Shown here piece after piece: positions 15,427 through 38,711 of a DNA stretch of 64,000 nt. Below the pieces are notes generated by a model. It ran no database searches. It worked only from the letters and a program-made list of their open reading frames with translations, and was not told where the DNA came from. Each line of letters starts with the position of its first letter. The stretch's first letter is position 1. The position numbers and the translations under genes are program-made. Source of the DNA: Flavobacteriales bacterium. GTDB lineage: Bacteria; Bacteroidota; Bacteroidia; Flavobacteriales; Flavobacteriaceae. The stretch covers positions 30,678 through 94,677 of the forward strand of contig JBBSOQ010000010.1 of NCBI GenBank assembly GCA_038259585.1, in the 5' to 3' direction.

Positions 15427-15428
15427 TG

Positions 15429-16781: not shown

Positions 16782-16795
16782 GTAACTAATGTTAC
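16782..16795. promoter_or_regulatory. GTAAC-TAAT-GTTAC box upstream of tolC-RND operon
   Basis: Perfect palindrome; centre 36.5 bp from - strand TATGTTTG (16752-16759). Confidence 0.8.
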
Positions 16796-16800
16796 CGAAG

Positions 16801-16900
16801 GAGTATTGAGTAGTGAGTAGTGAGTAGTGAGTAGTGAGTAGTGAGTAGTGAGTAGTGAGTAGTGAGTAGTGAGTAGTGAGTAGTGAGTAGTGAGTAGTGA
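16801..16900. repeat. Tandem heptamer repeat (GAGTAGT)13
   Basis: 13 perfect units at 16808-16898, preceded by GAGTATT. Confidence 0.97.
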
Positions 16901-16940
16901 AAATTGATAATTAATCCCTCAATGCTGTTTTCTTGTATCT

Positions 16941-16970
16941 AAAAGAGACTGCCTTTTAGGACAGCCTCTT
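16941..16970 (-). terminator. Terminator after the cytochrome b gene
   Basis: AAGAGACTGCC/GGACAGCCTCTT imperfect stem with short U tail on the - strand. Confidence 0.55.
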
Positions 16971-17039
16971 CACTAACCAAATAAATCTGCACTCTATAGG
17001 AACGAACCAACCAAGAAACGTTCGTAAATACGTTCAATG

Positions 17040-17612
17040 TCATTCATTAGAGCCGCGTACAATTCTTGAAATTATTCCTTTTTGATCTGTAAATTCTGCA
17101 ATTAATATTCCGCCAATGTGTAGTACAATAAAAGCTATTAGATAATAAATACCAAGTACATGTATTTCTTCCATTGGTTCTTTCAAAGTCTTTGGGCCCC
17201 ATACTATTATAAGCCCCGTAACTAAAGAAATTACAACACAAATATAAAAAATGACGTATGCCCATTTCTGGAATTTCTGTTTTACAGTTAAGTTTTTAGC
17301 AAATGGACTTTGAAACTTCATACTTCCGAAAAAAGGAAGTATAAAGCGCAAACTGAACAAACCAGTTAAAACATATCCTAAATAAATATGCCAATCCCAC
17401 ATAGGTTTCCGTATCTGTTTGGCTAAAACAATTAATTGCTCGCTAGAGAGTGATTGATCTGTGCTACTTAGATAATTCTGAATAATATCTGCCACATTTT
17501 CTTTATTCATCCAAGTCAATCTCAGAAAAATAGTAATTAGTAAAAGCAGAAAAGTTACCGCTATTGTCCAGTGGATAATCCGATAAATTTTTGAATAGTT
17601 TACAGTTTCCAT
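17040..17612 (-). CDS. Di-heme cytochrome b (b561/CybB-like)
   Basis: Four TM helices with His ligands RIIHW, WHIYLG, EIHVLG, LHIGG. Confidence 0.85.
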   Translation of the reverse strand: METVNYSKIYRIIHWTIAVTFLLLLITIFLRLTWMNKENVADIIQNYLSSTDQSLSSEQLIVLAKQIRKPMWDWHIYLGYVLTGLFSLRFILPFFGSMKFQSPFAKNLTVKQKFQKWAYVIFYICVVISLVTGLIIVWGPKTLKEPMEEIHVLGIYYLIAFIVLHIGGILIAEFTDQKGIISRIVRGSNE

Positions 17613-17619
17613 TGTGTTT

Positions 17620-18009
17620 CTATAAACTTTTAATGACCTTGGTCAATCTTTTTTGAACATCTTTCGCAATATCAGCCAAAGAATTATTTTCTACAGCCAT
17701 CATTGAGGCCGCTGGATCTACTGCTGAAACTTCTATAATTCCAGGTTCACGTTCTTGAACTATTACGTTGCAAGGAAGCATCGTCCCAATTTTGTTTTCG
17801 GCTTGCAGGGCTTGATACGCCATTTGTGGATTGCACGCACCTAGAATGGTATAATTATAAAAATCTGCGTCCAACTTCTTTTTTAAGGTGGCCTTAAGAT
17901 CTATTTCGGTCAACACCCCGAAACCTTCTAATTTTAAAGCTGCGGTTGTTTTTTCAATAGCATCTTTAAAAGTTGTGTTTTTTAATGTTGTAGTGATGTA
18001 ATAACTCAT
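17620..18009 (-). CDS. DUF302 domain protein
   Basis: GFGVLTEID, ILGACNP, LPCNV motifs. Confidence 0.9.
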   Translation of the reverse strand: MSYYITTTLKNTTFKDAIEKTTAALKLEGFGVLTEIDLKATLKKKLDADFYNYTILGACNPQMAYQALQAENKIGTMLPCNVIVQEREPGIIEVSAVDPAASMMAVENNSLADIAKDVQKRLTKVIKSL

Positions 18010-18077
18010 GGTTTTTATTTTATATAATTTACAAAATCAATCTTAAACAAATGTAAGATTGCAAAATGGGAAGTTCT

Positions 18078-18091
18078 GTAACAAAGATTAC
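18078..18091. promoter_or_regulatory. GTAAC-AAAG-ATTAC box upstream of DUF302-cytochrome b
   Basis: One mismatch; centre 36.5 bp from - strand TACATTTG (18048-18055). Confidence 0.75.
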
Positions 18092-18109
18092 ACAACTCGA
18101 TTTTCTTAT

Positions 18110-18337
18110 GAGTAATGAGAATTGAGAATTGAGAATTTATTTAGTCCTCAAAATGACTTTAATAAAGCATTCTTTCTTCTTTTTTTCTTTGTTCCAATCT
18201 ACTGAAAACTGAAAAGGCAACAGACAACTCACAACCAACACCTAATTAGCCCCGTGTTGATGAACAATTGTATCGCGTTCCTCGTTAGGTCGAGCCTTTG
18301 AATACATTGAGGATAAACTAAAGTCGAGACTTCGACT
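18110..18337. repeat. Degenerate heptamer tracts and a composite REP-like element
   Basis: (GAGAATT)3 at 18117-18137; GGTCGAGCC...AAGTCGAGACTTCGAC at 18288-18337. Confidence 0.45.
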
Positions 18338-18476
18338 AGTTGGTAAACTATTCCATGGAGTTTGCAAGCTGATTTTGCTAGGAGTATTGTAAAATTTCAC
18401 AAAGCTTTAATATTTATAAAACCGTAAACTATCATAAATAGATTAAATTGAGTTTTTAAAATAAAATATAAAAGCT

Positions 18477-18998
18477 ATGATTACACCAAAACAACAAGCC
18501 CCAGAATTAGAAATTAATTTAGTTGGCGGAGACACTTGGAAACTCGCAGACCAAAAACCTGAAAACTTTACGATGCTGGTTTTTTATAGAGGCTTACACT
18601 GCCCTGTTTGTAAAAGTTATACTGAAGAATTACAAACCCTAAAAGAAAAATACGAAGCATTAGGAGTAAATATTATTGCTCTAAGCATGGATACGGAGAA
18701 GCGCGCTACCATTTCAAAAACTGAATGGGATGTTGCCGATATTCCTATTGGTTATGGCCTTTCTGAAGCAGAGGCTAAGGCTTGGGGTTTATATTTAAGC
18801 AAAGGAATAAAAGATGCCGAGCCCGAACTGTTTTCAGAGCCTGGAATGTTTTTAATCAGGCCAAATAATGAGGTTTATTATGTAGCGCTTAATTCAGAAC
18901 CCTTCGGACGCCCCCATTTGCGTTCCTTTATTAAATCTTTAGAATTTATTTTGGATAAAAACTATCCTGCTAGAGGGGAAGTAGCTTATAGAACGTAA
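18477..18998 (+). CDS. Peroxiredoxin-like redoxin (AhpC/TSA family, CxxC)
   Basis: FYRGLHCPVC motif. Confidence 0.85.
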   Translation: MITPKQQAPELEINLVGGDTWKLADQKPENFTMLVFYRGLHCPVCKSYTEELQTLKEKYEALGVNIIALSMDTEKRATISKTEWDVADIPIGYGLSEAEAKAWGLYLSKGIKDAEPELFSEPGMFLIRPNNEVYYVALNSEPFGRPHLRSFIKSLEFILDKNYPARGEVAYRT

Positions 18999-19075
18999 AA
19001 TAAATTTTGAGGATTTAATACTTTAATTAATAGAGAGTAACACCAAGAATTCTTACTAAGAACAAGTCAATAATT

Positions 19076-19116
19076 TAATGGGAACATAGCTTTAAACACA
19101 AGCTTTGTTCCCATTA
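19076..19116. terminator. Bidirectional hairpin between convergent genes
   Basis: TAATGGGAACATAGCT / AGCTTTGTTCCCATTA, 1 mismatch. Confidence 0.65.
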
Positions 19117-19147
19117 TTGTTTGGTATTATTGGATATATCTTTTAAA

Positions 19148-19993: not shown

Positions 19994-20005
19994 AATTTTA
20001 ATTGT

Positions 20006-23125: not shown

Positions 23126-24292
23126 TCAATGATCATGCCCACCGGCAGAATCTTCATTTAATAATACAAAAGCCCCTTTGGTTAAAAAGGTACTTTCAGG
23201 TTTAAATGCCTCAGATGTTTCAATAGCTGTGAAGCCGTTATAATTCGCTCCAATTTTTACTTCTACGGGGAGAATTTCAAATTCTTCATCGTTTTCGCTT
23301 TCAATTAATAAAACATAATTTTTACCATCCATTTCCACTATTGCATTTTCAGGAAGTGCCAATTGATCTGAAGTACCCGTAACAATCTGTGCTTGCACAA
23401 ACATTCCTGCGGTGAAGTTTTGCTCATCCCTTTCATCTATATGCCCGTGAACCATTGCAATTCTTGTATTTGGATCTATAGAAGTGCCTACTAAATGTAC
23501 TTCGCCCTTAAAGGTTTCTTTTGAAGCTTCAGGAACCGTAAAAAGTATTTCTTGTTCTTTCTTTAGCTGCAATAAATCCTTTTCAAAAACCTTTAATTCT
23601 AAATGAATATGGTCTGTGTTCATAATTTCCATAATCTTATCTGCAGGCGAAACGTAAGTGCCCGTATTTACATACACTTGGGTTACGTTACCATCAATGG
23701 GACTGTAAATATTTACTGCTGAAACAATGTTTCCCGCTTGAACCGAAACAGGATTTATATTAAGCATTTCGAGGTTTTTCTTCAAGCTGTTGTATCGTGC
23801 TAGATTCATTTTGTATTCGCTTTCGGCTTTTAAATAACTTTTTTGGGAAGTTATTTTTTCATCAAACATAATTTTCTGGCGGTCATACTCAGATTTTAAA
23901 TAGGAAAGCTGTTCGGCGGTTTCTAAATAATTCTGCTGCATCGTAATAAACTCAGGATTTTCAATAGTTACCAAACGCTGCCCTTTGGAAACTTTATTAC
24001 CTACCAATAAGGGTGTGTTTTTTATATAACCTCCCGAAAAAGCACTTACTACCGCCCTACTCTGTGGCGGCACGTCAATCATTCCACTAGTTTGGACTGT
24101 TTGGGCAAAAGGTTTTTGGGTGAGTTCTCCTATTTCCATCCTTGCATTTTCAAACTGCGCTTTTGAAAGGTGAATTATTTCTGAATTGTTTTCTTCCGAA
24201 GCCACTTCAAGAGTAGCTTCTTTTGTTTTTGAATTATTGCAAGCTGCCAAAAATAAAATGGAAAGCAACAAAAGTGATTTTATATATTTCAT
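23126..24292 (-). CDS. Heavy-metal RND adaptor (CzcB/CusB-like) lipoprotein
   Basis: Lipobox LAAC, IYSPIDG, C-terminal GGHDH. Confidence 0.9.
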   Translation of the reverse strand: MKYIKSLLLLSILFLAACNNSKTKEATLEVASEENNSEIIHLSKAQFENARMEIGELTQKPFAQTVQTSGMIDVPPQSRAVVSAFSGGYIKNTPLLVGNKVSKGQRLVTIENPEFITMQQNYLETAEQLSYLKSEYDRQKIMFDEKITSQKSYLKAESEYKMNLARYNSLKKNLEMLNINPVSVQAGNIVSAVNIYSPIDGNVTQVYVNTGTYVSPADKIMEIMNTDHIHLELKVFEKDLLQLKKEQEILFTVPEASKETFKGEVHLVGTSIDPNTRIAMVHGHIDERDEQNFTAGMFVQAQIVTGTSDQLALPENAIVEMDGKNYVLLIESENDEEFEILPVEVKIGANYNGFTAIETSEAFKPESTFLTKGAFVLLNEDSAGGHDH

Positions 24293-24302
24293 AATGTATG
24301 AT

Positions 24303-27300
24303 TTAAAGCGTTAAAAAGTTGATAGCGATAACCGCTTGATTGTAATTATTTAGGTTTTCTAGATGCTGTAGTTCAATTTCATAAGCGTTTTCAAGACTTT
24401 GGATGTATTGAAAAAAGTCTATTTCGCCATTCTTAAAACTTCCGTTTGCAGTTTTTAAGATTTCTTCGGAAAGTGATTTCCCTTCCGTTTCATAATATTG
24501 CAGCGCTTCTTCATATTTTGAAACTTCGTTGAGCAATTGCACTTTTCTGGAATCTAAATGAATTTTATAATCTTCAGCTTGCTGTTGGCTAACATTTGCG
24601 GCAATTTTAGAGGCCTTTATTTTTGAAGCATTGCCGCTGAAAAGCAACGGAATTTTTAAACCCACTTGATAGGCATACAGATTTTGACTCAAACCTGAAT
24701 TGCTTCCCAAAGAATACGAAAGACTTATATCTGGCAGCAAATGTTGCTTTTCAAGATTTTGCTTTGCTTCAAAAAAATCATTTCTATTATTATAATATTC
24801 TATCGCTGGATGTGCTTCCATTCCCGGCAGCGAAAGTTGTAGTTTCTCCAAAGGCTGTTCAGAAATCACCAAACTATCCTTGGATTGCACAGCTGCTTTC
24901 AAGCGCTCTAGTGCAATATTTACATCTTCTTTGCTTTGTTTATAATCAGTTTCCAACTGACGTTGCTTGGCGCGAGCGGTTATTTTTTCTAGATAATTGG
25001 TTTCTCCAAGATCAAAACGACGTTGGGCGGCGTACGCAAAATTTTGATACAGACTATCCAAACTTTCGTAAACGCGTTCCCTGTTTTTCTCAAATTGAAA
25101 CTGATAATATGCTGCCGCAACCAAGCCTTCCGTTTTGCGTTTTTGAAGCTCGTATTGACTGCTTTGCATTTCAAACTGGCGCTGATTTACCTTTTTTTCA
25201 GCAAAATAAACTGTCGGGAAAAGAAAACCTTGCTGTACTCCAAAAACTTCGAGAGGTTCGTTGTTTGGTGCTAAGTTATTCTCGTCAAACTCATAAAAGA
25301 CAGTAGTTTTATCGAAGTTGAAAGCACTACCAATTAAAGCATTTGCTTCTTCTTTTTGAAGCGATGTTGCTTTTAAGCCTGCGTTATTTTCTAAAGCCAT
25401 TGTTTTTAAATCCTCTAAAGTTTTAGAGTTTTCCTGTGCTATTCCTGTAACTCCAAGTAACAATATGATGATGGTTAATGGCAAAGCCTTCTTCTTAGAT
25501 TTTCGAAGTTTTATTTTCTTTTTATCTGAATCAAAAATTGAAAATAGAACAGGTAAAACAACCAAGGTTAAAATCGTAGCCGTTACCAAACCACCAATAA
25601 CAACAGTTGCTAAAGGTCGTTGAACCTCAGCCCCAGCTCCAGTTGAGATTGCCATTGGTAAAAAGCCAAGTGCGGCGGCGGCGGCGGTAAGCAAAACAGC
25701 TCGCAAACGGTTTTTTGCACCCTTCACAATAAGTTCCTTTTTATCTGTCATTCCTTCTTTTTTAAGTTCTTTAAAATGTTCTATTAAAACAATTCCGTTT
25801 AGTACTGCAATCCCAAAAAGGGCAATAAATCCAACGCCAGCCGAAATGCTAAAAGGCATATCGCGCAGCCATAACAATAACACGCCACCCACTGCCGCCA
25901 ATGGAATTGCTGAATAAATCATAAGCGCCTCTTTCACGGAATTGAAAGCGAAATACAGCAAGAAGAAAATTAACACCAAGGCTACAGGAACGGCAAACAA
26001 CAACCTACTTTTTGCGCTTTGAAGGTTTTCAAACTGACCGCCATAATCAATTGTATAACTTACGGGAAGTTGAATATTCTCGTCTATTAATTTTTGAACA
26101 TCGTCCACAACGCTTTGCAGATCGCGACTTCTCACGTTTATTCCCACTACAATTCGGCGTTTGGTGTCATCTCTCGATATTTTCGCTGCGCCTTTTGTAT
26201 ATTTTATTTCAGCGAGTTCGCGTAACGGAACTTTTTCGCCAGATGGGGTGTCAACATAAAGGTTTTGTAGGTTTGAAAGATCGCGACGGTTGTTTTCATC
26301 CAAACGAACAACAAGGTCAAAACGTTTTTCTCCTTCAAAAATACTTCCCAAAGATTTACCTGCAAAACCCATTGCTATCATTTCATTCAAATCTTGAATA
26401 TTGAGTCCGTAGCGGGCAATTTTAGCTCGGTCAAACTTCACATTCATCTCTGGTAGCCCTACTACTTTTTCCACAGTAATATCATCGGCTCCTTCCACAT
26501 TTTCTACAAGGCTCTTTATTTCGTTTGCTTTTTTGTTTAGTATTTCAAGATCTTCCCCAAATATTTTGATAGCAATATCTGCCCGTACACCCGTTATAAG
26601 CTCGTTGAAGCGCATTTCAATAGGTTGGGTAAATTCTACTTCCATTCCTGGAATTATAGCCAAAGCTTCTTTGAATTTGTCGGCCAATTCATTTTTGTTC
26701 TTGGCAGAAACCCATTCGCTCTTTGGTTTAAGGGTAATTATAACATCACTTTCTTCCATAGACATAGGGTCTGTAGGCACTTCGGCAGCACCAATACGGC
26801 TTACTACTTGATCTACTTCAGGAAAGTTTTCTATCAGAATTTTTTCAATATGCGTAGTAATATCGATCGTATTGCTGAGGGAAGTACCTGTTTTCAGAAC
26901 TGGTTGAATTACAAAATCGCCCTCGTCCAATGTTGGAACAAACTCGCCACCCATAGTTGAAAAAAGATAAATTGTTGAAACTAGAATTAATACCGCAACA
27001 CCCAACACCACCCTTTTTGCGCTTAATGCCCAGCGAATTGTTGGTTCGTAAAAACGATTTAGGAAAGCCATAATTCTAACAGAAATATTCTTTTCTGAAG
27101 TTTCCGTTGGTTTTAAAAATAAGGAGGCGGCAACTGGAACGTATGTAAAACAAAGCACCATTGCCCCAATAAGTGCAAAACTGAATGTAAGCGCCATAGG
27201 CTTAAACATTTTTCCCTCTACCCCGCTAAGTGATAGAATTGGGATGAAAACAATTAAAATTATAAGCTGTCCAAAAATGGCAGAATTCATCATTTTTGAA

Positions 27301-28637: not shown

Positions 28638-28730
28638 AACTAATTATAATTTTATCTTTTTTCAACAGAAATTGCCGAAAAATGAAATATTAAAGATTGA
28701 TTTTAACCGCTTTGAAAAAGCGTTAGATAG

Positions 28731-28772
28731 TGACCTTATAAGAATTTGGAAATTTTTATTTCCAGAAGGTCA
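28731..28772 (-). other. Hairpin 6 nt downstream of the His-rich leader stop
   Basis: TGACCTT/AAGGTCA outer stem and TGGAAAT/ATTTCCA inner stem. Confidence 0.5.
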
Positions 28773-28778
28773 ATTTAG

Positions 28779-29177
28779 TTATGCAAATTTTGGGGGTTGG
28801 AAAATGGAAACTTTTTCCAAGGAAGAATATAAATTTTGGTAATGGAAAGTGTGAAATTGATGTATGTTTATTTCTGCTTTTAAACCTAGAATTTCAAAAG
28901 GCGCAAATACTACATCATTTAAAACGTGGTGACAAGAAATATGTTGAAAAGGCAGTTCTTGATGCTCCTGATCTTCTTCTTTATGATTTTTTTGATGTTC
29001 CGATTTTAAGGAACCGTAATGTTTTTCATAGAAAGTAAAAAAATCATCACCATAATTTTCTGAATGATATTCAGCATGTTGTACCAAACGCCCGAGTAGA
29101 AAAATATCCTGCATTCCAAACCCTACGCTTTGAAAAACGATAAGTAGAGAAAAAGTTATGGAGAATAGGTTTTTCAT
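28779..29177 (-). CDS. Putative His-rich leader/arrest peptide upstream of czcA
   Basis: Hydrophobic N-terminus, 12 His, LPF motif, ends SIFQPPKFA*. Confidence 0.75.
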   Translation of the reverse strand: MKNLFSITFSLLIVFQSVGFGMQDIFLLGRLVQHAEYHSENYGDDFFTFYEKHYGSLKSEHQKNHKEEDQEHQELPFQHISCHHVLNDVVFAPFEILGLKAEINIHQFHTFHYQNLYSSLEKVSIFQPPKFA

Positions 29178-29230
29178 TTAAAAAAATAAAATTAGACAAT
29201 AATTTTTAATCATTAACAGATGGGAAAATA

Positions 29231-29371
29231 TTATTTATGAGCTTCCCGTGTTCCCCCGTGGCCACCAGCCACAATAAGCAATACTTTAATGCTTAAAAAA
29301 ATAAATTTGAAAAACTGGATGATGGGGTTCATCATTACAAACCGTTTGAAATTTGATATTCTTTTTGTCAT
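29231..29371 (-). CDS. 46-aa small membrane protein directly downstream of sqr (not in the ORF track)
   Basis: Hand translation MTKRISNFKRFVMMNPIIQFFKFIFLSIKVLLIVAGGHGGTREAHK*; ATG 12 nt after the sqr stop. Confidence 0.65.
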   Translation of the reverse strand: MTKRISNFKRFVMMNPIIQFFKFIFLSIKVLLIVAGGHGGTREAHK

Positions 29372-29383
29372 GGTTATAAATTT

Positions 29384-30841
29384 TTATTCAGGAATTAAAT
29401 ACCAAAATGGTTTCATTTTAGCTTTATATATAAAAGCATAGTGCAGCGCAAGTTTTAGCCAATGACCTGCCAAACCGATTTCGCCAAAAGTCTTGCTTAG
29501 CTTTCTTCCCATAGTGTCTGGGTATTTTATGTAATCAGGGACAATTGGGAACGTAGTTATGCTTATACCACTGCCTTTGGTCATTCCAAAACCTGCGGAA
29601 GCAATACAAGCAGCGCCCATATTGCCCATAGAACCTTTGTGGCGAAGTGATTCTTTATTATTTTTTATACTATCAATAATATTGTCTGCAACTAATTTTG
29701 CCGTAATACCCGAGGGCATTCCCGTTCTTGGCGGGGCAGGAAAGATTTCTGTTCCGTTCGGACTTTTACGGGGTTTAGAGATACTGTGTGGTGGCGCAAA
29801 AGCTATTCCCGGTGCAAAAATATTTTTATAATTCGGGTTTTGATAGGTCTCTGGCCAGTCTTGTACGGTCCATTCTTCATAGGGTTTGGGTGTATAATCT
29901 GCGTCAACTATCATAAAGCCTTTAAATAGTTTCTCGGTGATGTCTTGCTTGTTTTTATCGAAAGCTTTAAACCCGTGTCCCGAAAAGGAAGGGATAAGCA
30001 TCGCAAAATCATATTCAATGTTTTTGTGCTCCCCGTTCAGCGTTTCATAATGGGCAAGACCTTCTTCAATTTTAGTAACCCCTGCCCCAAGAATCCAATC
30101 TATGTCGCGATCTTCAAAAACCATCTCTACCATTTCATTGGATTTCATACTATTACTTCCATAGCTTAGCAGCATCCCGTCCATTCCGAAATCGCCCAGT
30201 TTATATTCATTGGAAATCCACGTAATTTTGGCTTTGTCACGAACTTTTTGTCTGCGAAGTTCTTGCTCAACATTTAAAATATATTCAAAAGCTGCGCCTT
30301 GGCAAGTTGCTTTTGCGTGGCCAGTGCCAATAACAATTCGTGCTTCCTTTCCCTGTTTCATTTCTTCAATTAAGGCTTGTAAACCTTGATAGGCGTGCTC
30401 TGCGTGCGTATAAGTACATACGGAATACGTTTTGTTAGTTCCGGGATTTAAACCTTCGGTAGCTTCAAAATTAAGTTTGGGACCCGTGGCATTTATAAGA
30501 TAATCGTACGTAATTTTTTCAGTTTCGCCTCTTTTTTCTTCGGAAACGTATTCAGCCATTACGAATGGTTTTTCTGTTTCATTATCGCCTTCGGGAAAAA
30601 AAGAAGTCACCTTGGCTTGTTTGAACCCGATACCTTTCTTTTTGTATAAAGGCGCCAACGGAAAAAGTATTTGCTTGGATTTCATTCGGCCAATGCCAAC
30701 CCAAATATTGGAAGGAATCCATTGATACTTACTGTTGGGCGAAACCACAACAACTTCGTGGGTTTTGTCTAGTTTTCTGCGAAGATGGGAAGCAGCTACA
30801 TGACCTGAAATTCCAGCACCTAATATTACAATTTTTGACAT
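29384..30841 (-). CDS. sqr: Sulfide:quinone oxidoreductase-like flavoprotein
   Basis: GAGISG FAD motif; Cys in SVCT, ATCQGAAFEY and ACIASAG; PRTGM motif. Confidence 0.75.
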   Translation of the reverse strand: MSKIVILGAGISGHVAASHLRRKLDKTHEVVVVSPNSKYQWIPSNIWVGIGRMKSKQILFPLAPLYKKKGIGFKQAKVTSFFPEGDNETEKPFVMAEYVSEEKRGETEKITYDYLINATGPKLNFEATEGLNPGTNKTYSVCTYTHAEHAYQGLQALIEEMKQGKEARIVIGTGHAKATCQGAAFEYILNVEQELRRQKVRDKAKITWISNEYKLGDFGMDGMLLSYGSNSMKSNEMVEMVFEDRDIDWILGAGVTKIEEGLAHYETLNGEHKNIEYDFAMLIPSFSGHGFKAFDKNKQDITEKLFKGFMIVDADYTPKPYEEWTVQDWPETYQNPNYKNIFAPGIAFAPPHSISKPRKSPNGTEIFPAPPRTGMPSGITAKLVADNIIDSIKNNKESLRHKGSMGNMGAACIASAGFGMTKGSGISITTFPIVPDYIKYPDTMGRKLSKTFGEIGLAGHWLKLALHYAFIYKAKMKPFWYLIPE

Positions 30842-30892: not shown

Positions 30893-30904
30893 TGATATTA
30901 ATCA
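30893..30904. promoter_or_regulatory. Fnr-like box TGAT-ATTA-ATCA (proximal sqr promoter)
   Basis: Centre 36.5 bp from - strand TAATTTAG (30862-30869). Confidence 0.7.
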
Positions 30905-30960
30905 TATAACTGTGAGATAATTAGACATGTCAAAAATCTGCTTTTTAATGATCTCGCACA

Positions 30961-30974
30961 GTAACTTTTGTTAC
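30961..30974. promoter_or_regulatory. GTAAC-TTTT-GTTAC box (distal sqr promoter)
   Basis: Perfect palindrome; centre 36.5 bp from - strand GATTTTTG (30931-30938). Confidence 0.75.
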
Positions 30975-31319: not shown

Positions 31320-32396
31320 TTAATGTTCTCCATAGCCCACATCGTCCATCTTGCCTTTAAAAACTCGGTACTGAATAAACATATAGACTGCAACTAGAAT
31401 TGCGGCAATAACAAACCAATATACACCCACTGACAATCCATATTCATGCGCTGCCACATTATAGAGCGTTAAGGAAGGATTTACATCATTGGTTGAAGGC
31501 AAAACCTTTGGAAATATGGAAGCCACCGTAGAAGTTAATCCGCCAAATAGAAATAAGGATGAAAACAAAAAGCCTAAACCATCCTTTTTAAAGGATTTTA
31601 CTTTAAACAATCCGAAAAGTCCCGAGAATGCAATAAGGGGGAAAACCCATAGCCAAGGATTTTCTATAAAATTATGAAATGGTTTTGGCTCAATAATATG
31701 CCAAAGCAATAAAGAACTTATTACCAAAGCCAACAGTACAAAATTTAAATTGAAAACAACTTTTTTAAGCTTTTGGTTTAAGTCTGAATTGGTTTTGAAG
31801 ATAATCCAATTTGCCCCGTGAATCGTCAACGCTACTACCCCAACAACCCCAAGTAACAACGTAAACCAATCAATAATTCCCAATTGCTCAGCGTGCGGAC
31901 TAAACGTGGAATTCCATAAGGGCAAAAAGAAATAATGGGGTTCCTGTGCAGAAACACCATTGGTAACCATTCCTAAATTTACACCTCTCACCACGTTTCC
32001 TAAAGCAATTCCGAAAAATAAGGCCAGTAATAAACTTGAAACTCCAAAGGCTTTATCCCAAATAGTTTCCCACATCTTGTTATGGATTTGACCACGTAAT
32101 TCTAAACCAATGGCCCTAAAAATAAGCAGCCATAAAATCATTATCAATGGCAAATAAAATCCACTAAAAGAAGACGCGTATAAAGTTGGAAACGCAAAAA
32201 ACAAAACACCCCCAACGGCTATTAACCATACCTCATTGGCATCCCAAAAAGGACCGATGGCGTTTGTAATTGCTTTCTTGTCCTTTTCAGTTTTGGCAAA
32301 GAACAAATGAATGATGCCAGCACCAAAGTCATAACCATCCAAAATCACATAAATGGTGAGCATTGTAATTAAAACGATATACCAGAATAATTCCAT
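31320..32396 (-). CDS. cydB: Cytochrome bd ubiquinol oxidase subunit II
   Basis: LDGYDFGAG, GPFWDANEVWL motifs. Confidence 0.96.
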   Translation of the reverse strand: MELFWYIVLITMLTIYVILDGYDFGAGIIHLFFAKTEKDKKAITNAIGPFWDANEVWLIAVGGVLFFAFPTLYASSFSGFYLPLIMILWLLIFRAIGLELRGQIHNKMWETIWDKAFGVSSLLLALFFGIALGNVVRGVNLGMVTNGVSAQEPHYFFLPLWNSTFSPHAEQLGIIDWFTLLLGVVGVVALTIHGANWIIFKTNSDLNQKLKKVVFNLNFVLLALVISSLLLWHIIEPKPFHNFIENPWLWVFPLIAFSGLFGLFKVKSFKKDGLGFLFSSLFLFGGLTSTVASIFPKVLPSTNDVNPSLTLYNVAAHEYGLSVGVYWFVIAAILVAVYMFIQYRVFKGKMDDVGYGEH

Positions 32397-32398
32397 AG

Positions 32399-33733
32399 TT
32401 AGATTTGTTTTGTGGTTTCAGGCCCTTTTTTAATGATTTTTCCAGCTAGCATTAAGAATAATAATCCTAATAATAGATACAGACCAATAAAACCAAGCAA
32501 GGTGAATAAAGTATTCCCAGAAGAAACTGTTGGTGAAATGCCATCAGCAGTTCGCAAAAGGTTATAAACCAACCAAGGTTGCCTGCCCAGTTCAGCAGTG
32601 TACCAACCAGTAGTGTTCGCTATATATGGAAATGGCAACATGAACATCAGAGACCATAAAATCCATTTGGTTTCATAGAGTTTCTTTCGAAACAATTGAA
32701 TACTTCCAATAAACATCAACCCAATAAAAATAGTGCCTAAACCAACCATAATGTGGTATGAATAATACAGTCCTGGAATATTAGTGGGGTACACACTTTC
32801 ATCAAATTCATTTAAACCCTTCACTTGGGCATCCCATCTTTGATAGGTTAAAAAACTCAACACATTTGGAACTGCTATTTTGTTGTCGAGCTTTTTATTT
32901 TCCGTATCTGGTTGCCCAATTAGAATAATTTCAGAACCTTCATCTTCTGTTTCAAAGATACCTTCCATAGCAGCAAAGGTTACAGGTTGATGTTCTACCA
33001 CATTTTTAGCAGCCCAATCTCCTGTGGGAAAAGCCACTAAGACACTCGAAATCAATCCGAAAATCACACCCGTTTTTACAAAAAGTTTTCCGAATTCACT
33101 GTGTTTATTGCCTAACAGATAGAATGCGCCAATGGCTGCCACAACAAAAGATGCTGTAATAACGGAAGCCAATTGATTGTGTAAATAAGAAGGAAGCAAC
33201 CAAGGATTGGAAAATAAAGCTCCAAAATTATTAAGGACAAACTTTCCGTTTTCCAAAATTTCATACCCTACCGGATGTTGCATCCACGAATGGGTAGCTA
33301 TAATTAAATACCCGCTAGCCCAAGACCCCAAAAACACTAGAAAACCTGTTAGAAAGTGTAACTTTTGTCCCATTAGCTTTTCACCAAAAAGGAATAACCC
33401 CAAAAACGAAGATTCAAGGAAGAAAGAAAACATCCCTTCCATTGCAAGAGTCTGACCTATAATACCTCCAGTAAGCTCTGAAAACTTTGCCCAATTGGTG
33501 CCAAATTGAAATTCCATAGGAATGCCGGTAACTACGCCCATTGCAAAGTTGAGCGCGAAAATCTTCATCCAGAATTTGGCAGCATCGTTGTATTTATAAA
33601 TCTTGGTTCTGAGAAATTTCCATTTAAAATAGACAATCATTAAAGATAGTCCCATGGTCAATTGCGGAAATAAATAGTGGAAAGTGATAGTAAACGCGAA
33701 TTGCATTCTATCATAAAAGAGCATGTCTTCCAT
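32399..33733 (-). CDS. cydA: Cytochrome bd ubiquinol oxidase subunit I
   Basis: FHYLFP, EFQFGTNW, AELGRQPW motifs. Confidence 0.96.
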   Translation of the reverse strand: MEDMLFYDRMQFAFTITFHYLFPQLTMGLSLMIVYFKWKFLRTKIYKYNDAAKFWMKIFALNFAMGVVTGIPMEFQFGTNWAKFSELTGGIIGQTLAMEGMFSFFLESSFLGLFLFGEKLMGQKLHFLTGFLVFLGSWASGYLIIATHSWMQHPVGYEILENGKFVLNNFGALFSNPWLLPSYLHNQLASVITASFVVAAIGAFYLLGNKHSEFGKLFVKTGVIFGLISSVLVAFPTGDWAAKNVVEHQPVTFAAMEGIFETEDEGSEIILIGQPDTENKKLDNKIAVPNVLSFLTYQRWDAQVKGLNEFDESVYPTNIPGLYYSYHIMVGLGTIFIGLMFIGSIQLFRKKLYETKWILWSLMFMLPFPYIANTTGWYTAELGRQPWLVYNLLRTADGISPTVSSGNTLFTLLGFIGLYLLLGLLFLMLAGKIIKKGPETTKQI

Positions 33734-33788
33734 TCAATTAGTATTTTATTCGATACATCAAAAATACTCTATTGAACGGGTAATTTAA

Positions 33789-33802
33789 GTAACATTAGTT
33801 GC
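33789..33802. promoter_or_regulatory. GTAAC-ATTA-GTTGC box upstream of cydA
   Basis: One mismatch; centre 36.5 bp from - strand TATTTTTG (33759-33766). Confidence 0.75.
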
Positions 33803-33916: not shown

Positions 33917-33976
33917 AATTTAGCAATTTGTTCCCTTTTAGAAGAGCCTATTCTTTAATTTCAAAATGAATTCTAT

Positions 33977-35320
33977 TTAATTTTTAAAGTCATTTACTTT
34001 TTCACTTAAATCAAAAACATTCACTTCGCTAATCATATTGTCTACAATACTGCTTCCAGAAGTGCTTCTATAGCCTCCGGCGCAATGCACAACGATTGGT
34101 TTGTTTGTAGGGATTTTGTCTTTAGAATCTCTCAATTCGTTAAGAGGGATATTTATTGCATTTTCAAAAAACTTACCTTCTGAAACTTCGCTTTTATTTC
34201 TAATGTCTATAATTGTGTATGCATCTTTATTCTTTTTGAAATTTTCAAAATCAAAGGATACAGATTTTTCTTTTGCTTTTTCAGAAAGAGTAACCATAGC
34301 GATGATTTGTGATTCATATCCTATTTTGGCAATCCTGTGCATTATTTCGTCTCTATCTTGAATTGAATTTATAGCAACATAAAATTTTTCATTGGGTTTA
34401 ACAATAGCCCCAAGCCAAGTTTCTACTTTATCATCTTCATTACGCGCCATAATATTTATACTGCCAGCAATGTGATTCTTTTTAAAAACTGCTTCATCTC
34501 TAACGTCTATAATCAAACTATTTTCTGGAAGGCTATCAACTCCAACTTTTAGGGATACATTTCCTATACTTTTTTCAAAGTTCTTCGCCCCCTCTTTATT
34601 AATATCTACATCAAATCCAAAATAGGCAGGAATAAAAGGTTGGTCGCTTAAAATGTTATTCACAAACTGTTCTTCAGTTTGTTTTTTGAAGGCCCAATTG
34701 CCAACACGTTCATTGCCCAAGGTGCTTGAAGAATCTGTACTCATATTCTTACCACACAATGAACCTGCTCCGTGGGCTGGATAAACCAATGTATCATCAG
34801 GCAAATGATTAAATTTAGTTTGAATAGTATTGTACATACTCTTAGCCAGCTTTTCACGAGTGGCTCTCATATTTCCTGCTTTTTCGCGTAAATCTGGTCT
34901 TCCAACATCGCCAATAAACAAGGTATCTCCAGAAAACATAGCATACTTTTCTTTTTCATCTTTGGCAATAATGGTGATCCCGTCTGGGGAATGTCCAGGA
35001 GTGTTAATTGCGAAAAGTGTTGTTTTACCCAAGCTAACTGTATTGCCATCGTCAAACGGCTGATGTGGATAATTTGCACCTACCAATTTGCTTACATATA
35101 TAGTGGCACCCGTTTCTTTATGTATTTGCAAATGACTGCTTACAAAATCGGCATGGGGATGTGTTTCAAAAACAGCTACAATTTTCGCATTGTTTTCTTC
35201 GGCATATTTATAATATTGGAAGGGGTTTCTGGCGGGATCTACTAAAGCCATTTTGCCATCACTAATAATAGCATAAGAGTAATGTGCCAATGGCTTATCT
35301 TGAAATTGTTTAATTGTCAT
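33977..35320 (-). CDS. MBL-fold persulfide dioxygenase fused to two rhodanese domains (CstB-like)
   Basis: ETHPHADF, TPGHSP, GDVGRPDL, YPAHGAGSLC; second rhodanese has HCAGGYRS, first lacks the Cys. Confidence 0.88.
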   Translation of the reverse strand: MTIKQFQDKPLAHYSYAIISDGKMALVDPARNPFQYYKYAEENNAKIVAVFETHPHADFVSSHLQIHKETGATIYVSKLVGANYPHQPFDDGNTVSLGKTTLFAINTPGHSPDGITIIAKDEKEKYAMFSGDTLFIGDVGRPDLREKAGNMRATREKLAKSMYNTIQTKFNHLPDDTLVYPAHGAGSLCGKNMSTDSSSTLGNERVGNWAFKKQTEEQFVNNILSDQPFIPAYFGFDVDINKEGAKNFEKSIGNVSLKVGVDSLPENSLIIDVRDEAVFKKNHIAGSINIMARNEDDKVETWLGAIVKPNEKFYVAINSIQDRDEIMHRIAKIGYESQIIAMVTLSEKAKEKSVSFDFENFKKNKDAYTIIDIRNKSEVSEGKFFENAINIPLNELRDSKDKIPTNKPIVVHCAGGYRSTSGSSIVDNMISEVNVFDLSEKVNDFKN

Positions 35321-35356
35321 AATCTACAGTATTAAATTCTACTAAAACTATTAAAT

Positions 35357-35388
35357 AACGGTCTTGGCATTAAAAAGCCAAGACCGTT
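35357..35388. terminator. 12-bp perfect hairpin between peroxiredoxin and dioxygenase genes
   Basis: AACGGTCTTGGC/GCCAAGACCGTT; weak U tail in the transcribed (-) direction. Confidence 0.55.
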
Positions 35389-35398
35389 TTATTGGGAA

Positions 35399-36061
35399 TT
35401 ATATATTTTTCTTTGCCAAATACCAACTCACTTTTTCTAAAGAATCGTCTTTCAATCTGGCGTTAAGTTCATCTAAAGTTTTTGGAGGACCAACAATTAC
35501 TTTATCTCCTTTTTTCCAATCTAATGGCATTGCCACCTGATATTTATCTGAAGTTTGAAGGGCTTCCAAAGCGCGTAAAATTTCATCCATATTTCTACCC
35601 ACGTTTAATGGATAATACATTACCAATCGTATTTTCTTTTTATTGTCAATGAAAAATACGGCGCGTACGGCAGCTGTTTCACTTTCATTTGGCTGAAGCA
35701 TTCCATACAGTTTTGATACTTTCATATCAATATCTGCAATGATTGGGAAATCAAAATAAACACCTGTGGTTTCCCTTACATTTTGAACCCAGCCCAAATG
35801 TGCGTGAATACTGTCTATACTTAATCCTAAAAGTTCAGTATTTAAGGCATCAAACTCGCCTTTTCGTTTTGCAAAACCACTCATTTCGGTAGTGCAAACT
35901 GGCGTAAAATCTGCTGGATGTGAAAACATCACAATCCATTTGTCTTTTGCGAAGTCGGACATTTTTATTTTTCCTTTGGTTGTAACTGCTTCAAAATTTG
36001 GAGCGCTGTCACCTATTCTTGGCATTGCATTTACTTGTTGTACTTCTGAATTTATTTCCAT
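35399..36061 (-). CDS. 1-Cys peroxiredoxin (Prx6-like)
   Basis: HPADFTPVCTTEM motif; GRNMDEILR. Confidence 0.93.
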   Translation of the reverse strand: MEINSEVQQVNAMPRIGDSAPNFEAVTTKGKIKMSDFAKDKWIVMFSHPADFTPVCTTEMSGFAKRKGEFDALNTELLGLSIDSIHAHLGWVQNVRETTGVYFDFPIIADIDMKVSKLYGMLQPNESETAAVRAVFFIDNKKKIRLVMYYPLNVGRNMDEILRALEALQTSDKYQVAMPLDWKKGDKVIVGPPKTLDELNARLKDDSLEKVSWYLAKKNI

Positions 36062-36127
36062 TATAATTATTTTTAACTATTGTTTTTAAATTTTCAATAA
36101 AATTAAGCTATACTGTTATTTTGTACA

Positions 36128-36141
36128 GTAACATTAGTTAC
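36128..36141. promoter_or_regulatory. GTAAC-ATTA-GTTAC box upstream of the peroxiredoxin gene
   Basis: Perfect palindrome; centre 36.5 bp from - strand TAATTTTA (36098-36105). Confidence 0.78.
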
Positions 36142-36147
36142 AAAACA

Positions 36148-36957
36148 TCATTTTACGATAAATTCCATATAAAAGATGAAGATGGCCATTATTAAAATAA
36201 AATAACCAAAGGATTTTTTTAACTTATTTCCATCTATGAAATTACCTAGATAGCTACCTATGAAAATTCCTAGTAGTGATATAGCTGTTATGGTCAATAG
36301 AAAATTCCAATCTATTTGTCTTACTAATGCATCTCCAAGAAAAAACCCAATTAATGAATTTAGCGCAATAATAATAAGGGAAGTCCCTACGGCTACCTTC
36401 ATTTCTACATTGGCTAAAATAACCAAAGCTGGTATAATTAAAAATCCACCACCTGCACCAATCAAACCAGTTACTGACCCTAAAATTAAGCCTTCAATAA
36501 GTATTAGGGGATAATTATATTTTACTTTTCCTGTAGTTTCTTTTACCAAACTCTTTTTACCGTTTAACATTGAAAAAGCCGCTGGAATCATTAAAAGCGC
36601 AAACAATCCAAACATACCCATTCTTCGAGTAATTTGAAATTGGCCTATCGTAAATAATACATCTGGCAAAGCAGGCACTACATAATGTCTTATTAGCGTA
36701 ACACCTATAATTGCTGGGAAACCAAATACAATTGCAGTCCGCAAGTTTACATAGCCTTTAAAGTATTGTTTTATTCCCCCAACTAGTGCGCTGGTTCCTA
36801 CAATAAATAAAGAATAAGCGGTTGCAGATTTTTCATCTACTGAAAATAAATATGCTAAAACAGGTACTGCTAAAATAGAACCTCCACCGCCAATGATACC
36901 CAAAGATAAACCTATGAATAATGCACTTATATATCCAAAGATTTCCAGTAATGCCAT
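36148..36957 (-). CDS. Sulfite exporter TauE/SafE (TSUP) family
   Basis: GIIGGGGSIL and GLIGAGGGFLIIP repeats, 8-TM pattern. Confidence 0.93.
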   Translation of the reverse strand: MALLEIFGYISALFIGLSLGIIGGGGSILAVPVLAYLFSVDEKSATAYSLFIVGTSALVGGIKQYFKGYVNLRTAIVFGFPAIIGVTLIRHYVVPALPDVLFTIGQFQITRRMGMFGLFALLMIPAAFSMLNGKKSLVKETTGKVKYNYPLILIEGLILGSVTGLIGAGGGFLIIPALVILANVEMKVAVGTSLIIIALNSLIGFFLGDALVRQIDWNFLLTITAISLLGIFIGSYLGNFIDGNKLKKSFGYFILIMAIFIFYMEFIVK

Positions 36958-37005
36958 AATTTATAATTTAGAGATCAAAAATAGCTTCCTTACTTGAGGT
37001 ATCAC

Positions 37006-37019
37006 GTAACATTGGTTAC
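37006..37019. promoter_or_regulatory. GTAAC-ATTG-GTTAC box upstream of the TSUP gene
   Basis: Perfect palindrome; centre 36.5 bp from - strand TATTTTTG (36976-36983). Confidence 0.8.
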
Positions 37020-37033
37020 ATAAAACTTAAAGC

Positions 37034-37615
37034 TTATTTTTTCAAAAGTTTAAAAAACAATTCAATTCCACTTCGTTGCGGAATTGAATTGTAAGCTATC
37101 TCCATAGTCTCTATTTTGAATTTTTCTTTAAAAAGTGAAACGTATTCCTCTTTATTTCCTCCAAATGGAGGTTTGTCATCATTTAAAGGAATATTAAAAA
37201 GTAGCCCTACCAGCTTGCCTTTTGGCTTGAGCAGTTTGTGCATTTTTTGAACATATTCTTCACGAAATGATGGTTCCAAAGCACAAAAGAAAGTCTGCTC
37301 CAATATTAGGTCAAAGGTTTCTTCCAATTCGAAAAAGTCTGAATGCAACAGATGTTCCTTTGGAAATAAAGGCACGCGTTTCGCCATATTTTTTAAGGGA
37401 ATAGAAGAAATATCAACCACAAATACATTATTAAATCCATTTTTAACTAGGTATTCCGCTTCGTAAGAATTTCCACCTCCGGGAATCAATATTTTTAAAT
37501 TTTTATCTGAAAGTTGATCGATGTATTCCTTTAATGGCGTAGCAACATAGCCTATATCCCATCCCGTCTCACCGCTGATGTATTTGTGGTTCCAAAAAGT
37601 TTCGTAAAAATTCAT
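37034..37615 (-). CDS. Thiopurine/thiol S-methyltransferase (TPMT-like)
   Basis: FW...TGWDIG, ILIPGGGNSYE, EQTFFCAL, PPFGG motifs. Confidence 0.88.
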   Translation of the reverse strand: MNFYETFWNHKYISGETGWDIGYVATPLKEYIDQLSDKNLKILIPGGGNSYEAEYLVKNGFNNVFVVDISSIPLKNMAKRVPLFPKEHLLHSDFFELEETFDLILEQTFFCALEPSFREEYVQKMHKLLKPKGKLVGLLFNIPLNDDKPPFGGNKEEYVSLFKEKFKIETMEIAYNSIPQRSGIELFFKLLKK

Positions 37616-37618
37616 AGC

Positions 37619-38641
37619 TTATTTTTCAAAACTTATACTCCAAATTCCACGAACCTGATTTTCAGTATAACCAATTGCTTTATCAGCTGGGTATAGTTCT
37701 TTTATTTTGGACAAGTTGATCGTTTCCAGTTCCTTTCCGGGAGTTCCATGGCATTTTAAACACATGGAGTTAGTTATAATTGGGTAATAAAATTCTGTTT
37801 CAGTTCCCATTTCCACAATAATTGGATTCACTTCTGAGCCCGCAGCAACTTGTTTTTTGAAATTTTCCAAGTATAACAGTTCCGAATCATTTGCCTTGTT
37901 TTTAGGGTTTCTAGGCTTGTCTGAAACACGCTTAATATGTGCTTTATGAACAGTAGCCATACTATCAGTTATAGGCATTGCTTGGATATTGCAAAAATCG
38001 AGCGCCGCAATCACACCGTTTTTTTGAATTTGGCCCATCAGGTTTTTCCCCAATTCGGCTTTGGTGGTTTGTGTCATTTGCATGCCACGTTCCTTAAGCG
38101 TAAGCTTTCCATCACTATTTCCTTTTTTTTGTCCCATTCCCATTCCTTTGCCTTGACCCATTTTCCTTTTCATTCCTGGTCGGTCACCGTGCATTTGGTT
38201 GTAATGTGATTCAAACCATGCGGGTTCTTCTATTTCGTTGTCGAACATATAATCCGCGATTTGTTTTATGGTTTCCTCTGGAAAAAATTGATAAGGCATC
38301 AATCCAAATTTATTAATAGCACCCGGCATTTTTGATTTTTCTTCGGAAGGTTTTTTGGCCCAACCAACCATTGCATTTATAAAATCTTCCTTTGAAGTAT
38401 CCTGAGAAATATAATGCATTTTTACCGCTATCATTGGCGGTGCCATCATGCTTTCTTCTGAAGTTTTTGGATTGTGGCAAACGTAGCAATTGTTCTCCAT
38501 CAATTTTTTTCCTGGATGTTCCTGATGAATCTCAAGTTCGGGATTTTGAGTATTTTCAGCAATCGCCAAATATTCGTTTCGCGTATTGGTATTACAGGCC
38601 GTGAATAGGCTAATAAAAAAAAGTGTGGCTAAAAATTTCAT
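37619..38641 (-). CDS. Lipoprotein with cytochrome c domain plus DUF3365 (Tll0287-like) heme domain
   Basis: Lipobox FTAC; CYVCH and CLKCH heme sites; ALDFC, RVSDKPRNP, GYTENQVRG. Confidence 0.8.
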   Translation of the reverse strand: MKFLATLFFISLFTACNTNTRNEYLAIAENTQNPELEIHQEHPGKKLMENNCYVCHNPKTSEESMMAPPMIAVKMHYISQDTSKEDFINAMVGWAKKPSEEKSKMPGAINKFGLMPYQFFPEETIKQIADYMFDNEIEEPAWFESHYNQMHGDRPGMKRKMGQGKGMGMGQKKGNSDGKLTLKERGMQMTQTTKAELGKNLMGQIQKNGVIAALDFCNIQAMPITDSMATVHKAHIKRVSDKPRNPKNKANDSELLYLENFKKQVAAGSEVNPIIVEMGTETEFYYPIITNSMCLKCHGTPGKELETINLSKIKELYPADKAIGYTENQVRGIWSISFEK

Positions 38642-38697
38642 ATCTTAAGGATAAAGTGTGTATTCTTCAAAAATAAATTTAAACAGCACAATTGGCA

Positions 38698-38711
38698 GTA
38701 ACAAAAGTTAC
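38698..38711. promoter_or_regulatory. GTAAC-AAAA-GTTAC box upstream of the DUF3365-TPMT operon
   Basis: Perfect palindrome; centre 36.5 bp from - strand TATTTTTG (38668-38675). Confidence 0.8.

Follow-up and report, generated by a model that had tools for sequence, protein, structure and literature searches.

A Crp/Fnr-type protein and its class II-like operators as a candidate sulfide-defence regulon in Flavobacteriaceae

A 64-kb window (i.e., the whole stretch of DNA that was analysed) of a 3.14-Mb, 43-contig Aequorivita (Flavobacteriaceae) assembly, which is 92.9% complete, carries seven copies of the inverted repeat GTAAC-N4-GTTAC, each placed at a fixed distance from a promoter element and next to genes of sulfide and persulfide metabolism. 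The best overall explanation, to which we assign a probability of about 0.65, is that these seven promoters form one local sulfide-defence regulon read by the adjacently encoded Crp/Fnr-family activator. From sequence data we infer binding of the sites and activation of transcription by this protein, a sulfide or persulfide signal, and sensing of that signal by its cysteine residues.

The perfect operator, GTAACNNNNGTTAC, occurs five times in the window, and a scan of the window allowing one mismatch recovered two further operators (Table 1), which reproduces the seven sites of a preliminary description of this DNA. Dinucleotide-preserving shuffles of the window contained 0.01 perfect sites on average, and none of 100 shuffles reached five or more. 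Each of the seven sites is separated by exactly 22 nt from a TAnnTTTG-like −7 box on the − strand (TATGTTTG, TACATTTG, GATTTTTG, TATTTTTG, TAATTTTA, TATTTTTG, and TATTTTTG), in line with the 36.5 bp which that description gives between the centre of the site and the end of the box. The promoter-proximal arm GTTAC is intact in all seven, with both mismatches confined to the distal arm, and all genes of the operator-bearing stretch are located on the − strand. Another one-mismatch match, at 49154, lacks the promoter geometry and was not taken as a member of the regulon. The whole assembly contains nine perfect sites, of which the four outside the window (C6:55285, C7:89152, C7:135710, and C12:884) were dropped, being inside open reading frames (ORFs) and having no proper box at 22 nt. 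Genome-wide, the geometry of a 22-nt spacer and a −7 box is found at the seven window sites only, and the set of this genome is thus complete with these seven promoters, which extend over 22 kb. These sites are almost certainly real and belong to one regulon.

A search with the adjacent Crp/Fnr protein retrieved 80 related loci (70–91% identity, 1.37 Mb in total) from genera including Aequorivita, Kordia, Tamlana, Maribacter, Polaribacter, Cellulophaga, Leeuwenhoekiella, and Dokdonia. These loci hold 206 perfect sites, and the 22-nt spacer is kept at 199 of them when a −7 box with up to two mismatches is allowed; the genome-wide and cross-species scan that the preliminary description had called for thus finds the motif conserved upstream of orthologues. 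The first gene behind the site encodes a persulfide dioxygenase (PDO)-rhodanese fusion in 41 cases, TauE in 34, a cytochrome c/Tll0287 protein in 22 (there as a pair with a TPMT-family gene), sulfide:quinone oxidoreductase (SQR) in 22, peroxiredoxin (Prx) in 16, the regulator itself in 12, a YeeE/YedE-like protein in 10, TolC in 7, and CydA in 5. Single-domain rhodaneses, a sulfite-oxidase-like molybdoenzyme, a type II SQR, and SulP transporters are also preceded by sites in relatives. A logo of 227 distinct sites extended the consensus asymmetrically to T-GTAAC-N4-GTTAC-TG, with T at position −1 in 204 sites, T at +14 in 152, and G at +15 in 145. The CTG that results on the downstream side resembles what would be left of a −33 TTG element. 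In a genome from another family of Bacteroidia, whose regulator is 48% identical, the same sites precede genes for SulP, a molybdopterin oxidoreductase, PDO-rhodanese, and YeeE. A phylum-wide sample placed the composite of site and box in Flavobacteriaceae and several other families of Bacteroidia and in one of 226 sampled genomes of other classes of the phylum, so that the scope of "Bacteroidota" first proposed for the regulon was too wide.

A map of transcription starts in Flavobacterium psychrophilum locates TAnnTTTG at −12 to −5 (PMC9723704). Combined with the 22-nt spacer, this location implies that the 14-mer spans −48 to −35. The site centre falls at about −41.5 from the inferred start, where FNR, CRP, and NtcA bind at class II promoters. 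Such promoters are characterized by a dimer site near −41.5 with a fixed spacing to the downstream element, and this arrangement is found in all seven window sites and in 199 of the 206 related ones. Activation from −41.5 is therefore likely on this geometry, because base-pair-exact spacing across genera is expected for contact with polymerase and is not needed for simple occlusion. In the proposed mechanism, a homodimer of the adjacent protein would bind TGTAAC-N4-GTTAC(TG) with its centre at about −41.5, substitute for the degenerate −33 element and recruit sigma-A RNA polymerase, like class II NtcA or FNR. Alternatively, a different protein might bind the sites, or the adjacent Crp/Fnr protein might be a repressor that occludes the −33 region, as the overlap of the site with the expected position of the −33 element would allow. 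However, the spacing to the −7 box is that of a polymerase-contacting activator, only a degenerate −33-like CTG is left, and the helix type varies together with the presence of the site and of the regulator, which makes this alternative improbable.

The adjacent protein belongs to the Crp/Fnr superfamily by its PF00027 (5e-10) and PF13545 (4e-9) domains, both above the cut-offs. A Foldseek search with its predicted structure returned CRP, FNR, and NtcA at probability 1.0, and only generic Crp/FNR/NtcA/HcpR matches. The recognition helix, HTSRVVVSRLL, contains SRVVVSR, which aligns with TRVTVTR of NtcA (R-V-x-V-x-R), and this R-V helix is present in no other Crp-type paralogue of the genome. 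In 78 of the 80 related loci, the next same-strand gene downstream of the regulator is a member of the regulon. Co-occurrence was assessed in one genome for each of 200 Flavobacteriaceae genera plus the window genome (201 genomes), using a strict 44-nt composite of a perfect site, 22 nt, and a perfect TAnnTTTG. This composite was present in 129 of 170 genomes with a regulator homologue versus 1 of 31 without (Fisher 4.7e-15), while a reversed-pattern control was found in 2 of 201. Moreover, distant relatives with an R-E helix adjoin sites with GTGAT or GTGAC arms instead of GTAAC; these sites precede a Tll0287-rhodanese pair, a type II SQR gene, and a DUF6132 gene, and at least two of them keep 22 nt to the box (Table 1). 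The R-E and R-V operators thereby offer a natural series for a helix-to-base code, Val going with A and Glu with G. Linkage, co-occurrence, helix specificity, and the co-variation of helix and arm together tie the protein to the sites, and the earlier choice of this gene as the best candidate regulator is very probably correct. In 12 related loci, an operator precedes the regulator gene itself, pointing to autoregulation in some genera; this is absent here.

Three genomes (G138, G115, and G016) encode two regulator paralogues each, with about 55–76% identity to the window regulator, and each paralogue gene is adjoined by a perfect GTAAC-N4-GTTAC composite site. In some Flavobacteriaceae, two regulators in one cell may thus share a single operator word.

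The canonical regulon of the primary reactive-sulfur sensors comprises SQR, PDO, sulfurtransferases, TauE, and YeeE, and sulfide-exposed cells also switch to sulfide-resistant respiration (PMC13467558). Judged by site position, the controlled set here and in relatives is of the same functional class (SQR, PDO, sulfurtransferase, and TauE/YeeE). On account of this match in gene content, sulfide or sulfane sulfur derived from it would be the most likely signal, an assignment that we regard as probable rather than secure. In the proposed regulon, sulfide would be oxidized by SQR, joined in most relatives by PDO-rhodanese, and the product would be exported by TauE, with YeeE and SulP in relatives. 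Cytochrome bd would provide sulfide-insensitive respiration and the 1-Cys Prx thiol repair, to which the regulon probably adds methylation (TPMT) and efflux (TolC-RND). The activator-driven Crp/Fnr regulon put forward at the outset is supported; its promoters are of a class II-like type, and genes for sulfide and persulfide handling are enriched in it. Among the downstream genes then listed, tolC-RND, DUF302-cytochrome b, sqr, cydAB, prx, tauE, and Tll0287-TPMT are retained, while the membership of pdo in this genome is uncertain.

The pdo gene is tied to the regulon by its position, and 39 of 58 related pdo genes, mostly of other genera, are directly preceded by a site. Here, no operator, degenerate ones included, was found within 160 nt upstream of pdo, and the same holds for the Aequorivita pdo genes that were checked. 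Between prx and pdo lies a 12-bp hairpin with a U-rich tract, and equivalent hairpins in Aequorivita congeners (L001–L003 and L024) keep the structure and differ in sequence. This element probably acts as an intrinsic terminator or attenuator and could govern pdo, in the latter case conditionally. Given the hairpin and the lack of a site of its own, expression of pdo through the regulon would require read-through of the hairpin or a separate promoter, and the description of the gene set as complete was overstated for this genome.

The only cysteines of the regulator, C77, C83, and C84, are clustered in a TCAMTMTCC segment of the sensor domain and are invariant in 81 orthologues. In a rough comparison by eye with the CRP sequence, this segment appears to occupy the position of the phosphate-binding loop. 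Sulfane sulfur would be sensed via the invariant C-x5-CC in place of the cyclic-nucleotide phosphate-binding loop, although we give direct sensing by the cysteines somewhat less than an even chance. The protein belongs to a wider subfamily with about 1,700 relatives at E < 1e-10, of which 137 representatives (31–64% identity) plus the query, 138 sequences in all, were aligned. The full C-x5-CC is present in 52 of the 138, with the R-E helix commoner than R-V. Among five C-x5-CC/R-E relatives that were sampled, two are clearly located by sulfur genes (Tll0287 plus rhodanese in one case and type II SQR in the other) and one shows only the operator geometry, before the DUF6132 gene. This five-relative sample is suggestive, and no more, of C-x5-CC travelling with sulfur genes.

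Several observations weigh against the interpretation as a sulfide-sensing regulon. The hallmark target elsewhere, pdo, sits here behind a strong hairpin without its own site, and 41 of the 170 homologue-bearing genomes lack the strict composite. C77 is kept in 133 of the 138 aligned sequences whatever their DNA helix, and in two of the five C-x5-CC/R-E relatives that were sampled the neighbouring genes are unrelated or ambiguous, both of which suggest that the cysteines may have a general cofactor or structural role. In the AlphaFold model, which is generically Crp-like (pLDDT, i.e., predicted local distance difference test, of 74.9), the Cys loop at residues 78–89 has pLDDT < 50. Finally, a hypoxia or metal signal would also be compatible with cydAB, TolC-RND, and the genes for metal efflux that follow sqr.

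Part of this evidence would be accommodated if the same regulator and operators served a cofactor-based sensor of oxygen or redox state, with a Cys-ligated Fe–S cluster or haem thiolate, either as a hypoxia/anoxia programme that anticipates sulfide or through binding of sulfide to the metal centre. Three clustered invariant cysteines in the ligand pocket, a C77 conserved irrespective of DNA specificity, a Cys loop modelled without confidence in the absence of a cofactor, and the presence in the regulon of cydAB, a classic low-oxygen target, all point in this direction. Bacillus subtilis Fnr carries an Fe–S cluster on three cysteines and one other ligand, and CooA binds haem through the thiolate of Cys75. 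However, the targets of the GTAAC operators are overwhelmingly sulfur-specific, the regulator has no FNR-type N-terminal Cys cluster, and a second operator family, TGAT-N4-ATCA, together with a receiver-Crp protein with an E-x3-R helix, already resembles an oxygen/FNR-type circuit. A cofactor sensor is therefore considered unlikely.

This second, FNR-box-like operator has the same spacing to TAnnTTTG and is present at ten sites in the genome, eight of them on the contig of the window. It precedes universal-stress-protein genes, a second (proximal) sqr promoter, and the mlaEFD operon, which lies directly upstream of the regulator gene and ends 48 nt before it. The location of the mlaEFD site raises the possibility of a cascade in which low oxygen acts on expression of the regulator. 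The TGAT-N4-ATCA boxes may be read by a receiver-Crp fusion of 351 aa encoded at the start of the window, and the sites and the fusion together look like an FNR-type circuit. The gap between mlaD and the regulator gene (39385–39432, 48 nt) contains no GTAAC site.

A small-molecule effector in the former nucleotide pocket, rather than modification of cysteines, would be compatible with the same regulator and operators as well. Candidate effectors are thiosulfate, sulfite, a low-molecular-weight persulfide, and a thiophilic metal or metalloid (Cu, Zn, Se, or Te). R131 on the long central helix is invariant and aligns with R128 of NtcA, an effector-contact residue, and the regulon includes the anion transporters TauE, YeeE, and SulP. 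A TPMT of the Se/Te-methylating type (a weak NCBIfam match), TolC-RND, an HMA-type metal chaperone in relatives, and the czc-type efflux genes after sqr point the same way. Nevertheless, the commonest targets, SQR and PDO, act on sulfide and persulfide and not on oxyanions or metals, and the invariance of all three cysteines favours thiol chemistry, so that such an effector appears slightly less likely still than a cofactor.

Considering the sulfide-defence regulon further, its DNA word has a precedent. GTAACnnnnGTTAC has been on record since 2005, when it was predicted as the motif of HcpR2, a branch that controls hcp in Bacteroides, clostridia, Thermotogales, and Treponema (Rodionov 2005, PMC1274295), and the earlier statement that the operator had not been described is thereby corrected. 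The defining traits of HcpR2 are that it is linked to and co-occurs with hcp and that it has a Pro at the position of CRP-E181 (PMC1274295). The operator consensus is identical, the HcpR2 branch is also found in Bacteroidota, and both proteins would be activators of a small local regulon, which could suggest that the window regulator is an HcpR2-type sensor of nitrosative stress. However, the hcp family PF03063 was not found in the genome by a search that detects hcp of Bacteroides thetaiotaomicron, no gene for nitric oxide detoxification lies behind any site, and the targets here are sulfide genes. In addition, the specificity position is occupied by Val instead of the Pro of HcpR2, and HcpR of Porphyromonas gingivalis (9day) is a generic fold match with 18% identity that is absent from the sequence matches. 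The protein thus shares the operator of HcpR2 and neither its linkage and co-occurrence with hcp nor its Pro, and we consider this the least probable of the alternatives.

Resemblance to NtcA is found in the DNA-binding part. NtcA binds a GTA-N8-TAC box centred at −41.5 in class II activation (PMC3898017). GTAAC-N4-GTTAC contains GTA-N8-TAC and so has the same outer triplets, GTA...TAC, and in both cases the site at about −41.5 replaces the upstream promoter element (PMC3898017). The regulator further shares with NtcA the Val at the CRP-E181 position and the R-V-x-V-x-R helix, and NtcA is its second-best sequence match in the PDB (4e-9). Unlike NtcA, it scores 34.9 bits against TIGR03697 (cut-off 244.95), its operator has 5-bp arms (GTAAC) upstream of a Bacteroidota sigma-A promoter with a TAnnTTTG −7 box, its regulon concerns sulfur and not nitrogen, its sensor domain carries C-x5-CC, and no PipX/2-oxoglutarate context is evident.

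In regulon content, the resemblance is to the known sulfide and persulfide sensors. A 2026 review restricts primary sensors to the CsoR, ArsR, and Fis superfamilies (PMC13467558). The regulon shares SQR, CstB-like PDO-rhodanese, TauE, YeeE, and sulfurtransferases with those of CstR, SqrR, and FisR, and, as with CstR and SqrR, sensing through conserved cysteines is plausible. In contrast to CstR (CsoR), SqrR/BigR (ArsR), and FisR (sigma-54), only Crp/Fnr domains were found here, i.e., a barrel like that binding cyclic nucleotide monophosphates (cNMP) and a Crp helix–turn–helix (HTH), and this difference in fold bears out the separation from the three systems made earlier. The mode of action would also differ, with activation from −41.5 in place of the de-repression of CstR and SqrR or the sigma-54 enhancer binding of FisR. 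The regulator is thus NtcA-like in operator, helix, and promoter position, CstR/SqrR/FisR-like in regulon content, and a member of none of these groups.

The protein is likewise no member of FNR, with 27.8 versus 228 bits for NF008365 and neither the [4Fe–4S] pattern of an N-terminal C-x2-C-x5-C with a central Cys nor the E-x2-S-R helix, or of CRP (51.4 versus 266 bits for NF008732), and both its operator and its R-V helix differ from the FNR system with its TTGAT-N4-ATCAA box. In Chlorobaculum tepidum, a CRP-like motif was reported near the sulfide-induced psrABC and cydAB genes (bioRxiv 10.1101/172254, 2017). There, too, within the wider Bacteroidota–Chlorobia lineage, a Crp-type word accompanies cydAB, which in C. 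tepidum is among the sulfide-upregulated genes, and the motif resembles TAAC...GTTA (PrfA-like). However, the motif there is located about 57–58 bp upstream of the start, with variable positions elsewhere, its candidate protein is absent from other Chlorobiaceae, and no SQR, PDO, or TauE genes are involved. It is therefore a loose precedent only, with no link shown to the family of the window regulator. The best sequence match among solved structures is PDB 3dv8 (4e-13), an uncharacterised Crp/Fnr protein of Eubacterium rectale, which shares two of the three cysteines at matching positions (C-x5-C) but has only the first Cys of the CC pair. No Crp/Fnr sulfide regulator of Flavobacteria was found described in the searchable literature. 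The novelty lies in the pairing of regulator and regulon, a proposed Crp/Fnr class II activator for reactive sulfur, and not in the DNA word. More tentatively, the protein may represent a fourth family of primary reactive-sulfur sensors, namely a class II activator of the Crp/Fnr fold in which a C-x5-CC thiol switch has taken the place of the former nucleotide pocket. On exposure to sulfane sulfur, its persulfide- or polysulfide-bridged form would bind DNA, activate transcription, and co-control sulfide oxidation, sulfite export, cytochrome bd, and sulfide methylation in marine Flavobacteriaceae and some other Bacteroidia.

Table 1. Operators, regulators, and genes discussed in the text, with positions in the window unless a contig (C) or related locus (L) is named.
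Feature	Position	Strand	Remarks
Operator 1, perfect	16782..16795	-	−7 box 16752-16759; promoter of tolC-MFP-RND operon
Operator 2, one mismatch (distal arm GTAAT)	18078..18091	-	−7 box 18048-18055; promoter of DUF302-cytochrome b561 operon
Operator 3, perfect	30961..30974	-	−7 box 30931-30938 (GATTTTTG); distal promoter of sqr
Operator 4, one mismatch (distal arm GCAAC)	33789..33802	-	−7 box 33759-33766; promoter of cydAB
Operator 5, perfect	36128..36141	-	−7 box 36098-36105 (TAATTTTA); promoter of prx
Operator 6, perfect	37006..37019	-	−7 box 36976-36983; promoter of tauE
Operator 7, perfect	38698..38711	-	−7 box 38668-38675; promoter of cytochrome c/Tll0287-like + TPMT operon
Crp/Fnr-family regulator, 210 aa, candidate activator	38752..39384	-	Pfam cNMP_binding + HTH_Crp_2
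Efflux operon, OEP/TolC-MFP-RND	10227..16733	-	Pfam OEP + ORFs
OEP/TolC	15429-16733	-	part of efflux operon
Membrane-fusion protein (MFP)	14178-15257	-	part of efflux operon
RND pump	10890-14087	-	part of efflux operon
Small ORFs of efflux operon	10452-10757 and 10227-10433	-	product of 10227-10433 ends Cys-Cys
DUF302 protein (17620-18009) + cytochrome b561 (17040-17612)	17040..18009	-	Pfam
SQR	29384..30841	-	best PDB match 3hyv Aquifex SQR, 1e-36
46-aa ORF downstream of sqr	29231-29371	-	
His-rich 132-aa ORF	28779-29177	-	follows 46-aa ORF
cydA (32399-33733) + cydB (31320-32396), cytochrome bd oxidase	31320..33733	-	assigned from sequence
PDO-rhodanese fusion (pdo), CstB-like	33977..35320	-	PDB 3tp9 2e-59, 3r2u 3e-54
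12-bp hairpin + U-rich tract between prx and pdo	35346..35389	-	dG -22.3 kcal/mol, z -5.4
1-Cys Prx (prx)	35399..36061	-	Pfam AhpC-TSA + 1-cysPrx_C; NCBIfam PRK13189 above cut-off
TauE/SafE-family sulfite exporter	36148..36957	-	Pfam PF01925, 1e-35
Lipoprotein with cytochrome c + Tll0287-like domains (37619-38641), TPMT-family methyltransferase (37034-37615)	37034..38641	-	Pfam
TGAT-N4-ATCA site	30893-30904		sqr proximal promoter
TGAT-N4-ATCA site	~41986		upstream of mlaE
TGAT-N4-ATCA site	~43845		
TGAT-N4-ATCA sites just outside window	C10 13807, 28095, 29526, 30631		
Receiver + cNMP-like + Crp HTH fusion, 351 aa	~1-1060 (HTH 10-213)	-	E-x3-R helix ATESLIR
R-E-relative operator	L083:2104-2117		GTAAC-N4-ATCAC; 22 nt to −7 box
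R-E-relative operator	L086:1438-1453		TGTGAT-N4-GTCACA
R-E-relative operator	L087:806-819		GTGAC-N4-GTTAC; 22 nt to −7 box

Two of the operators are accompanied by tandem heptamers. A GAGTAGT array of 14.3 copies (98% matches, 16801–16900) starts 6 nt upstream of the tolC operator, and a shorter TGAGAAT array of three copies (18116–18137) lies upstream of the DUF302 operator; these arrays are possibly length-variable elements that modulate the tolC and DUF302 promoters. On the same strand after sqr (23126–30841), a hydrophobic 46-aa ORF and the 132-aa ORF are followed by genes for a 1444-aa RND protein (CzcA-like), whose C-terminal part resembles an outer-membrane-factor domain, and for a CzcB-like protein. 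The order SQR, 46 aa, 132 aa, and CzcA recurs in related loci and hints that the handling of sulfide may be coupled to that of metals. The regulator, the DUF302 protein, TauE, and the Tll0287-like protein could not be placed in a specific family with NCBIfam models.

Flavobacteriaceae are major marine degraders of algal and particulate organic matter and meet sulfide in sediments, sinking particles, and oxygen-minimum interfaces, while the known sulfide and persulfide sensors (CstR, SqrR/BigR, and FisR) come from other phyla and have other folds. The regulon described here is compact, conserved, and predictable from sequence, and with its single candidate regulator, 14-bp operator, and exact promoter geometry, the question is directly testable. 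If the proposed reading is true, a Crp/Fnr-type activator would join the repertoire of reactive-sulfur sensors, and roles would be assigned to the DUF302-cytochrome b561 pair, the Tll0287-like haem lipoprotein, TPMT, and the TolC-RND pump. Sulfide detoxification would then be linked to possible methanethiol formation, and the genetics of Bacteroidota would gain a clean inducible promoter–regulator pair.

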